Source of the DNA: Escherichia coli
GTDB taxonomy: Bacteria > Pseudomonadota > Gammaproteobacteria > Enterobacterales > Enterobacteriaceae
Strand: one strand, 5' to 3'
DNA: 397 nt
Assembly (NCBI RefSeq): GCF_003334385.1
Contig: NZ_QOWN01000185.1
Position numbers and translations under genes: made by a program. Of the stretch, positions 1-297 are shown piece by piece; within the stretch, counting starts at the first letter, position 1; the number at the start of each line of letters is the position of its first letter. Under the pieces are notes generated by a model. That model made no database searches, was not told the origin of the DNA, and worked only from the letters and a program-made list of their open reading frames with translations.

Positions 1-297
1 CAGCGTGATGTTGCTGCACTTGATGCCAGATACTCGAGGGAATTAGCCGATGCGAGAGCTGAAAATGAAACTCTGCGTGCTGATGTTGCCGCTGGTCGTA
101 AGCGCCTGCGGATCAACGCCACCAGCTCCGGTACCGTGCGTGAAGCCACCGGCACCTCCGGAATGGATAATGCAACCGGCCCCCGACTGGCAGACACCGC
201 TGAACGGGATTATTTCACCCTCAGAGAGCGGTTGATGACAATGCAGAAGCAACTGGAAGGGGCGCAGGACTATATCCGCACTCAGTGTATTAACTAG
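1..297 (+). CDS. Rz: Rz-family i-spanin (inner-membrane spanin subunit), C-terminal periplasmic portion; 5'-partial, start codon lies upstream of the window
   Basis: Frame 1 is open from nt 1 to a TAG at 295-297 and translates to QRDVAALDARYSRELADARAENETLRADVAAGRKRLRINATSSGTVREATGTSGMDNATGPRLADTAERDYFTLRERLMTMQKQLEGAQDYIRTQCIN*. From memory this aligns nearly residue-for-residue with the C-terminal two thirds of lambda Rz (shared blocks QRDVAALDA, DVAAGR, VREAT, PRLADTAERDYFTLRERL, TMQKQLEG, QC near the C-terminus). The layout also matches: a helical segment, a Gly/Ser/Thr/Ala-rich linker (nt 115-183), a second helical segment, and a Cys near the C-terminus (nt 286-288). It is missing from the supplied ORF track, presumably because it has no in-window start codon. 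Confidence 0.9.
   Translation, partial: QRDVAALDARYSRELADARAENETLRADVAAGRKRLRINATSSGTVREATGTSGMDNATGPRLADTAERDYFTLRERLMTMQKQLEGAQDYIRTQCIN
36..40 (+). promoter_or_regulatory. Putative Shine-Dalgarno for Rz1, lying inside Rz coding sequence
   Basis: GAGGG at 36-40 with a 9-nt spacer to ATG at 50. An internal ribosome binding site is needed because Rz1 starts inside Rz in a different frame. Confidence 0.45.
50..235 (+). CDS. Rz1: Rz1-family o-spanin (outer-membrane lipoprotein spanin subunit), complete, embedded in the +1 frame of Rz
   Basis: The ORF runs from ATG 50-52 to TGA 233-235 and encodes MRELKMKLCVLMLPLVVSACGSTPPAPVPCVKPPAPPEWIMQPAPDWQTPLNGIISPSESG. It has a basic N-terminus, a hydrophobic core and a lipobox V-S-A-C with the predicted lipidated Cys20 at nt 107-109. 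Gly at +2 and Ser at +3 (no Asp at +2) predict outer-membrane sorting. The mature part is very proline-rich (12 Pro in ~42 residues) with a single Cys30 at nt 137-139. The C-terminal half (CVKPP, WIMQP, PDWQTPLNGIISPSE) is close to lambda Rz1 as I recall it. A GAGGG Shine-Dalgarno sits at 36-40, 9 nt upstream of the ATG. Confidence 0.88.
   Translation: MRELKMKLCVLMLPLVVSACGSTPPAPVPCVKPPAPPEWIMQPAPDWQTPLNGIISPSESG

Follow-up and report, generated by a model that had tools for sequence, protein, structure and literature searches.

The window analysed here, a stretch of 397 bases, holds the 3' part of an Rz gene, an open reading frame (ORF) embedded in it and the start of a downstream ORF. The embedded ORF offers two in-frame ATG codons near its 5' end, and the question raised by this locus is which of them starts the protein, and whether this protein has the signal peptide of a lipoprotein destined for the outer membrane. 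A sequence-only reading of the window had placed the two ATGs at 50-52 and 65-67 (codon 6), with a GAGAG at 54-58, six bases before the second one; all of these coordinates are correct. The elements around the two candidate starts are:

1-297, + strand: Rz, 3' two-thirds of the i-spanin gene, in frame 1 with TAG stop at 295-297; hosts Rz1 in its +1 frame
36-40, + strand: Shine-Dalgarno sequence GAGGG for ATG50; pairing with the 16S rRNA 3' end -6.4 kcal/mol
44-46, + strand: in-frame TAG, closes the Rz1 frame upstream of ATG50
50-52, + strand: Rz1 initiation codon ATG (Met1), the most probable start; ATG at -19 in 131/137 relatives
54-58, + strand: GAGAG, putative Shine-Dalgarno sequence for Met6, judged non-functional; pairing -3.0 kcal/mol
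65-67, + strand: second in-frame ATG (Met6), a minor start at best; present (at -14) in only 39/137 relatives

Identity and surroundings of the embedded ORF

The ORF at 50-235 (+ strand) encodes 61 amino acids, ends with a TGA stop at 233-235 and lies wholly within the +1 frame of Rz (1-297), the layout of an embedded o-spanin. In profile searches the Rz fragment matched PHROG 13 'Rz-like spanin' (E 1.8e-46), and in records 97-99% identical to the window Rz is annotated as 'lysis protein' or 'endopeptidase Rz'. The embedded ORF matched PHROG 3198 (E 1.7e-29) and Pfam PF06085 'Lipoprotein Rz1 precursor' (E 1.9e-19), and both hits support its earlier identification as Rz1. In the PF06085 alignment Rz1 residues 20-60 cover positions 1-40 of the 41 in the model, model position 1 being Cys20. 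A tblastn search with Rz1 returned 412 phage records, with 95% identity to 933W and 65.6% to phage 21 and lambda-type Rz1. At least 1000 public contigs carry the exact 61-aa protein, under the names 'Rz1 family lipoprotein' or 'Prophage lysis lipoprotein RzoD'. Neither Rz1 nor the Rz fragment nor the downstream ORF matched an NCBIfam family at E <=0.01.

At the DNA level the window and prophages of E. coli chromosomes shared 99.2% identity, and 4534 of 5426 complete E. coli genomes matched it at some level; the best phage match was ASU11 (97%). The lysis cassette of the 99.2% identical prophage runs class II holin, lysozyme, antirepressor (ant), Rz. In this closest prophage (RefSeq) Rz alone is annotated and Rz1 is missing from the annotation.

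Alternative frames of coding sequence often remain open, and the window also has a 106-aa antisense ORF; the embedded frame might likewise be open by chance inside Rz, its lipobox being coincidental. This reading is scarcely credible. The PF06085 match speaks against it, as does the conservation of frame, lipobox and start across hundreds of phages, and lysis genetically requires lambda Rz1 (PMC5295617). Moreover, an ORF of at least 40 aa with the lipoprotein pattern appeared in just 11 of 3000 dinucleotide shuffles of the window, which together with the homology excludes a chance origin, and the chance-frame reading was rejected as refuted by homology and conservation. Positions 50-235 thus very probably encode Rz1, the o-spanin of an E. 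coli prophage of the lambdoid (933W/Stx) type, with translation starting at ATG 50-52 and GAGGG as the Shine-Dalgarno sequence.

Several further features of the window were recorded. The antisense ORF (43-363, - strand) has a TTG start and spans both Rz and Rz1; it is probably a mere open frame opposite coding sequence. The downstream ORF (321-397, + strand; the first 25 codons, continuing beyond the window; 2821-3045 in L001), MKKLLVTVKPFQG..., corresponds to the 74-aa hypothetical protein WP_000735653.1 and matches PHROG 2571 (unknown function, E 1.7e-27) over profile positions 100-172 of 291 only. It sits where lambda, 933W and phage 21 have bor on the opposite strand. Inside this ORF, at 357-372 (+ strand), lies a weak terminator-like hairpin, GGAACAATTCCGTTCC followed by GTATTTTGCA; this one site compares with 0.3 such sites expected in shuffles. 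A promoter scan of the window gave no promoter-like site.

Position 124 is A in the window and T in every related locus gathered. The T124A change converts Rz codon 124-126 from TGC to AGC (NATCSGT to NATSSGT), so that Rz of the window has Ser where its relatives have a conserved periplasmic Cys, the equivalent of lambda Rz C99; in Rz1 codon 25 the change is silent (CCT to CCA). The exact 60-mer with A124 was found in 6 of 1401 E. coli records carrying this stretch, and the Ser form is therefore a rare natural allele. Among five listed A124 records, two are labelled serogroup O121, one of them being O121:H19.

Signal peptide, lipobox and predicted sorting of Rz1

Lipoprotein prediction was carried out by rules: PROSITE PS00013, including its conditions on position and charge, the G+LPP pattern and the lipobox of DOLOP. 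PS00013 reads {DERK}(6)-[LIVMFWSTAG](2)-[LIVMFYSTAGCQ]-[AGS]-C, with the Cys at 15-35 and a Lys or Arg within the first 7 residues. The resulting parts of the protein are:

50-106, + strand: predicted Rz1 signal peptide, codons 1-19; passes PS00013, G+LPP and DOLOP
50-70, + strand: n-region MRELKMK, net charge +2
71-97, + strand: hydrophobic core LCVLMLPLV, followed by the start of the lipobox
98-109, + strand: lipobox V-S-A-C with Cys20 (107-109) as predicted acylated first residue of the mature protein, from the patterns and the start of the PF06085 model
110-115, + strand: +2 Gly and +3 Ser, without the Lol-avoidance signal (Asp)
107-232, + strand: mature Rz1, 42 aa, with PF06085 over residues 20-60, Cys30 (137-139) and a proline-rich region

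The lipobox VSAC with Cys20 was found where the sequence-only reading had put it (98-109, GTA AGC GCC TGC; Cys20 at 107-109), and it fits the DOLOP consensus [LVI][ASTVI][GAS]C as quoted in PMC6139136. Translated from Met1, the protein agrees with PS00013, having the Cys at 20 and R2, K5 and K7 at its N-terminus. The form translated from Met6 agrees with the pattern as well, with the Cys at 15, which is the lower limit, K2 and an n-region of two residues. The proposal of a type II signal peptide is hence supported by PS00013, G+LPP and the DOLOP pattern, as far as pattern rules can predict it, and it also holds that the shorter Met6 signal peptide would still be a valid one and that either start would yield one and the same mature protein. 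The 12 residues past the last charged residue, LCVLMLPLVVSA, have a mean Kyte-Doolittle hydropathy of 2.63. The core contains a Pro and an extra Cys9, the latter removed with the signal peptide. In pattern, Cys position and Lys/Arg content Rz1 resembles generic bacterial lipoprotein signal peptides (PS00013/PS51257, DOLOP); its signal peptide is ordinary and well known, and nothing in it goes beyond the established picture of lambda Rz1.

The +2 residue is Gly (GGA at 110-112) and not Asp, as had been noted. Asp was likewise missing at this position among the homologues: the 81 distinct signal peptides of the family had A, T, S, G, N, K, R or V at +2, never D, and none of the 118 database proteins with a recognised lipobox had Asp there. 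In E. coli, Lol avoidance is signalled by a +2 Asp, and MexA with Gly at +2 fractionated with the outer membrane (PMC6469965), while the Rz1 allele imRz1, with an altered outer-membrane localisation signal, stays in the inner membrane (PMC6139136). Taken together, the absence of Asp at +2, the behaviour of MexA and the retention of imRz1 lead us to expect sorting of this Rz1 to the outer membrane. In an artificial lipoMalE reporter, Gly at +2 reportedly acted as a weak retention signal (Seydel et al. 1999); LptE, a native outer-membrane lipoprotein, has Gly at +2.

As an observation in its own right, Ser22 at +3 (113-115) was invariant in 81/81 distinct family signal peptides, in which +2 varied among 8 residues. 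Selection may act here on Rz1 or on the overlapping Rz codons.

The homology, the anatomy of the ORF, the conserved start with its Shine-Dalgarno sequence and the absent +2 Asp are what this analysis shows. Lipidation, cleavage, Lol transport and spanin function would follow by analogy with the experiments on lambda Rz1 and from standard lipoprotein biology. In such a scheme, GAGGG (36-40) would direct the translation start at ATG 50-52, and Sec would take the precursor across by means of the 19-residue signal peptide MRELKMKLCVLMLPLVVSA. Cys20 would receive diacylglycerol from Lgt, signal peptidase II would cleave between Ala19 and Cys20, and the new N-terminus would be N-acylated by Lnt. Rz1 in the outer membrane would then join with the Rz C-terminus in the spanin complex, by which the outer membrane would be removed as the last step of lysis. 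For lambda Rz1, lipidation and processing by signal peptidase II are reported in PMC5295617 with reference to Kedzierska et al. 1996, and the lipoylated residue is Cys20 (PMC5295617). By analogy with lambda genetics, Rz1 of the window would bind the Rz C-terminus and be needed for disruption of the outer membrane (PMC5295617, PMC6139136).

Choice between the two in-frame ATG codons

Due to the in-frame TAG at 44-46, ATG50 is the first possible start of Rz1. We studied the two ATGs in relatives collected from IMG/VR with three queries, Rz1 of the window and the divergent Rz1 of phages 3W and phiEt88, to which 12 GenBank phages and four loci from protein look-ups were added. The codon of the lipobox Cys served to register the loci. 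Of 151 distinct regions, 14 had been registered on a wrong Cys and were dropped, which left 137. The window was excluded from the family counts because its upstream part is too short for the 120-nt register.

Across the 137 relatives, which lack phylogenetic independence although the contrast between the Met1 and Met6 sites within each sequence is independent, the codon at -19 was ATG in 131, TTG in 4 (with ATG at -17), GTG in 1 and ACG in 1. The codon at -14 was TTG in 42 of these sequences, ATG in 39, TCG in 24, TTA in 21, ACG in 8 and another codon in 3. After single-linkage clustering at 90% identity, ATG was found at -19 throughout in 32 of the 35 clusters, the others having GTG, TTG and ACG, and all of 24 cluster representatives had it. 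Position 6 is TTG in L095, Leu in phiEt88 and Ser in 3W, and in all three Met1 and its Shine-Dalgarno sequence are kept. A Lys or Arg was located within residues -18 to -15 in 79 of 81 signal peptides, a stretch that is translated from Met1 only. The curated records of 933W, Stx2a_F765, 21 and HK630 all start Rz1 at the equivalent of Met1.

Among the departures at -19, L211 has GTG, and L181, L190, L192 and L196 have TTG with ATG at -17. L188 has ACG (Rz GAC) and only TTG codons near; it may use a non-ATG start or be decaying.

The overlap with Rz offers a further view on the two sites, as the T of each Rz1 ATG falls on a third codon position in Rz. Over Met1 this Rz codon was GAT in 126 relatives and the synonymous GAC in 1, and where the residue had changed the codon was still xAT (AAT, TAT, CAT). 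Over the Met6 site the Rz codons were AAT (39), AAC (8), ATT (41), ATC (25) and CTT (24); the mixture of AAT with AAC and of ATT with ATC indicates that a C which destroys the ATG and is synonymous in Rz is freely tolerated there. By these codon patterns ATG 65-67 is a side effect of the AAT (Asn) codon of Rz, and it is restricted to the lambda/933W subclade.

The ribosome-binding sites differed in the same direction. GAGAG had been called weaker than the upstream Shine-Dalgarno sequence, and this was borne out by pairing energies of -3.0 and -6.4 kcal/mol, respectively; the former value lies at the 50th percentile among all window positions and is thus background-like. Upstream of the -19 ATG, the Shine-Dalgarno sequence had a mean of -6.4 kcal/mol in 131 relatives, with a spacing of 6-9 nt in 127 of them, and the stretch upstream of the -14 codon had a family mean of -1.1 kcal/mol. 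With 9-10 nt, the window has a spacing near the upper limit for the family. The record of phage 21 annotates a ribosome-binding site at the matching place, and a synthetic lambda Rz1 construct keeps AAGGAGTTAGCTG immediately before the Met1 ATG (PMC5295617). GAGAG was found only where Rz has Arg (AGA); lambda, 21, 813R8 and 689R5 have AAAG instead, though Met6 is kept. Window position 36 is polymorphic, with GAGGG in the window and 933W and AAGGG in L001 and in IMG/VR loci of identical Rz1, which are the closest relatives; the difference leaves the Rz residue unchanged (TCG/TCA).

When 20-120 was folded at minimum energy, ATG50 was paired and ATG65 was placed in a hairpin loop. This arrangement is the one observation in favour of Met6, and it carries little weight because the fold was no stabler than shuffles (z +0.40; 133 of 200 shuffles folded as well) and RNAalifold predicted no conserved pairs among the 24 cluster representatives. 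RNA structure as a selector of the start was rejected on the same grounds.

Genetic evidence comes from the lambda prototype, whose Rz1 starts MLKLKMMLCV... and thus has Met also at 6 and 7 (PMC5295617). The M1K mutant was lysis-defective with Met6 and Met7 intact; it was obtained by random mutagenesis of a plasmid with Rz1 alone under the native late promoter (PMC5295617). Downstream starts alone therefore give no function, as judged from this one isolate in an allele that is without GAGAG.

With this in hand, a reading in which Met6 (65-67) is the main or sole start, so that five codons stay untranslated and the precursor has 56 aa, 14 of them in the signal peptide, can be weighed. The Met6 form passes PS00013 and G+LPP, and NCBI holds some 56-aa entries. 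The entries examined, however, were truncated at a contig end (L096, L097) or had Met1 intact upstream (L098), and no natural allele with Met6 but without Met1 was found among them. The exact 56-aa form of this allele occurred once, on an 845-bp contig, compared with at least 1000 contigs for the 61-aa form. Given also that the Met6 equivalent is absent in 98/137 relatives while Met1 and its Shine-Dalgarno sequence are conserved, and that lambda M1K is defective, we regard this reading as very improbable.

The use of both ATGs would yield Met1 and Met6 precursors with signal peptides of 19 and 14 residues, which may differ in the kinetics of export and processing and would give the same mature protein. 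Bacteria often initiate internally at a low level. In favour of this reading, the lipoprotein pattern rules fit both forms, three bases (GAG) 6 nt before ATG65 can pair with the anti-Shine-Dalgarno sequence, ATG65 is unpaired in the minimum-energy fold of the window, and Met is retained at -14 or -13 across the lambda/933W subclade. On the other hand, GAGAG pairs at the background median and is missing from lambda, 21, 813R8 and 689R5, natural relatives lose Met6 by changes that are silent or conservative in Rz, lambda M1K is lysis-defective, and the mature products are alike, leaving nothing for selection to act on. Use of both ATGs is unlikely in our view; Rz1 lacks the conserved second start with its own ribosome-binding context and distinct products that would mark a dual-start gene. 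At most, ATG 65-67 would be a minor, functionally neutral second start.

A more specific idea is that the 933W-type GAGAG, arising from the Rz AGA codon, makes ATG65 a genuine secondary start and that the short signal peptide shifts how much o-spanin there is, or how fast it is exported, relative to Rz. An embedded gene would then conceal a device for tuning translation through ATG65; we consider this quite improbable. A ribosome profiling study (bioRxiv 10.1101/511675) mentions rzoD/rzpD only to illustrate gene nesting and contains no data on their start sites.

Initiation at Met1 is therefore the reading we adopt. The sequence-only reading had left the true initiation codon ambiguous, a judgement that does not stand beside the near invariance of the Met1 ATG, its Shine-Dalgarno sequence and T51, the restriction of Met6 to a subclade, the unconserved GAGAG and the defect of lambda M1K. 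With high confidence, the ambiguity can be taken as settled in favour of ATG 50-52.

Relation to known lysis genes and meaning for annotation

Rz1 of 933W (AAD25453.1) is the close counterpart, 95% identical, with an identical signal peptide (MRELKMKLCVLMLPLVVSAC), the same position in Rz and the same annotated start. The two proteins differ in C-terminal residues (E38 in the window, A in 933W; PSESG in the window, SSERG in 933W), and the downstream neighbour in the window is the hypothetical ORF and not bor.

With lambda Rz1 the window protein shares the embedding in the +1 frame, the 19-residue signal peptide, Cys20, Met1 and Met6, the Shine-Dalgarno sequence upstream of Met1, a periplasmic Cys (C29 in lambda, C30 in the window), the proline-rich region and the WQTPLNGIISPSE C-terminus. 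In the window, the periplasmic Cys (137-139, the equivalent of lambda C29) is accompanied by the proline-rich KPPAPPEW...QPAPDW; the role of the C29-type Cys in a homotypic disulfide is described in PMC6139136. Identity to lambda Rz1 is, however, about 65%, and the window has VSAC where lambda has VVGC, Gly-Ser instead of Thr-Ser at +2/+3, a linker that is one residue longer and PPAPP instead of PPPPP. Lambda Rz1, unlike that of the window, has Met7 and is without GAGAG before Met6.

Ala35 (152-154) and Ala44 (179-181) of the window protein give PPAPP and PAP, as against PPPPP and PPP in lambda, and they align with lambda P34 and P43. Lysis-defective alleles are listed at prolines 32, 33, 35, 36, 42 and 44 (PMC5295617, Table 3); P34 and P43 are the only positions in lambda P32-P36 and P42-P44 for which that table lists no defective allele.

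The lambda holin gene S (S107/S105) also has two close in-frame ATGs, from which antiholin and holin are made in a ratio set by RNA structure. Rz1 resembles S in that it is a lysis gene of the same cassette and begins with two close in-frame ATGs. In contrast to S, the second ATG of Rz1 is unconserved and no conserved RNA structure was predicted, and because the signal peptide of Rz1 is removed, the products of both starts would be identical, unlike S107 and S105.

Beyond annotation, the finding matters little. Embedded o-spanin genes, though, often go unannotated, and 196 unannotated and 64 mis-started o-spanins were reported in PMC6139136. For the Rz1 family a simple start rule can be given: initiation is at an ATG located 19 codons upstream of the lipobox Cys and having a Shine-Dalgarno sequence 6-9 nt before it. 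Furthermore, T51C and T66C would each abolish one ATG and be silent in Rz, so that the embedded layout gives a clean test of start choice. In nature, the T66C-type change has occurred many times and the T51C-type change almost never.
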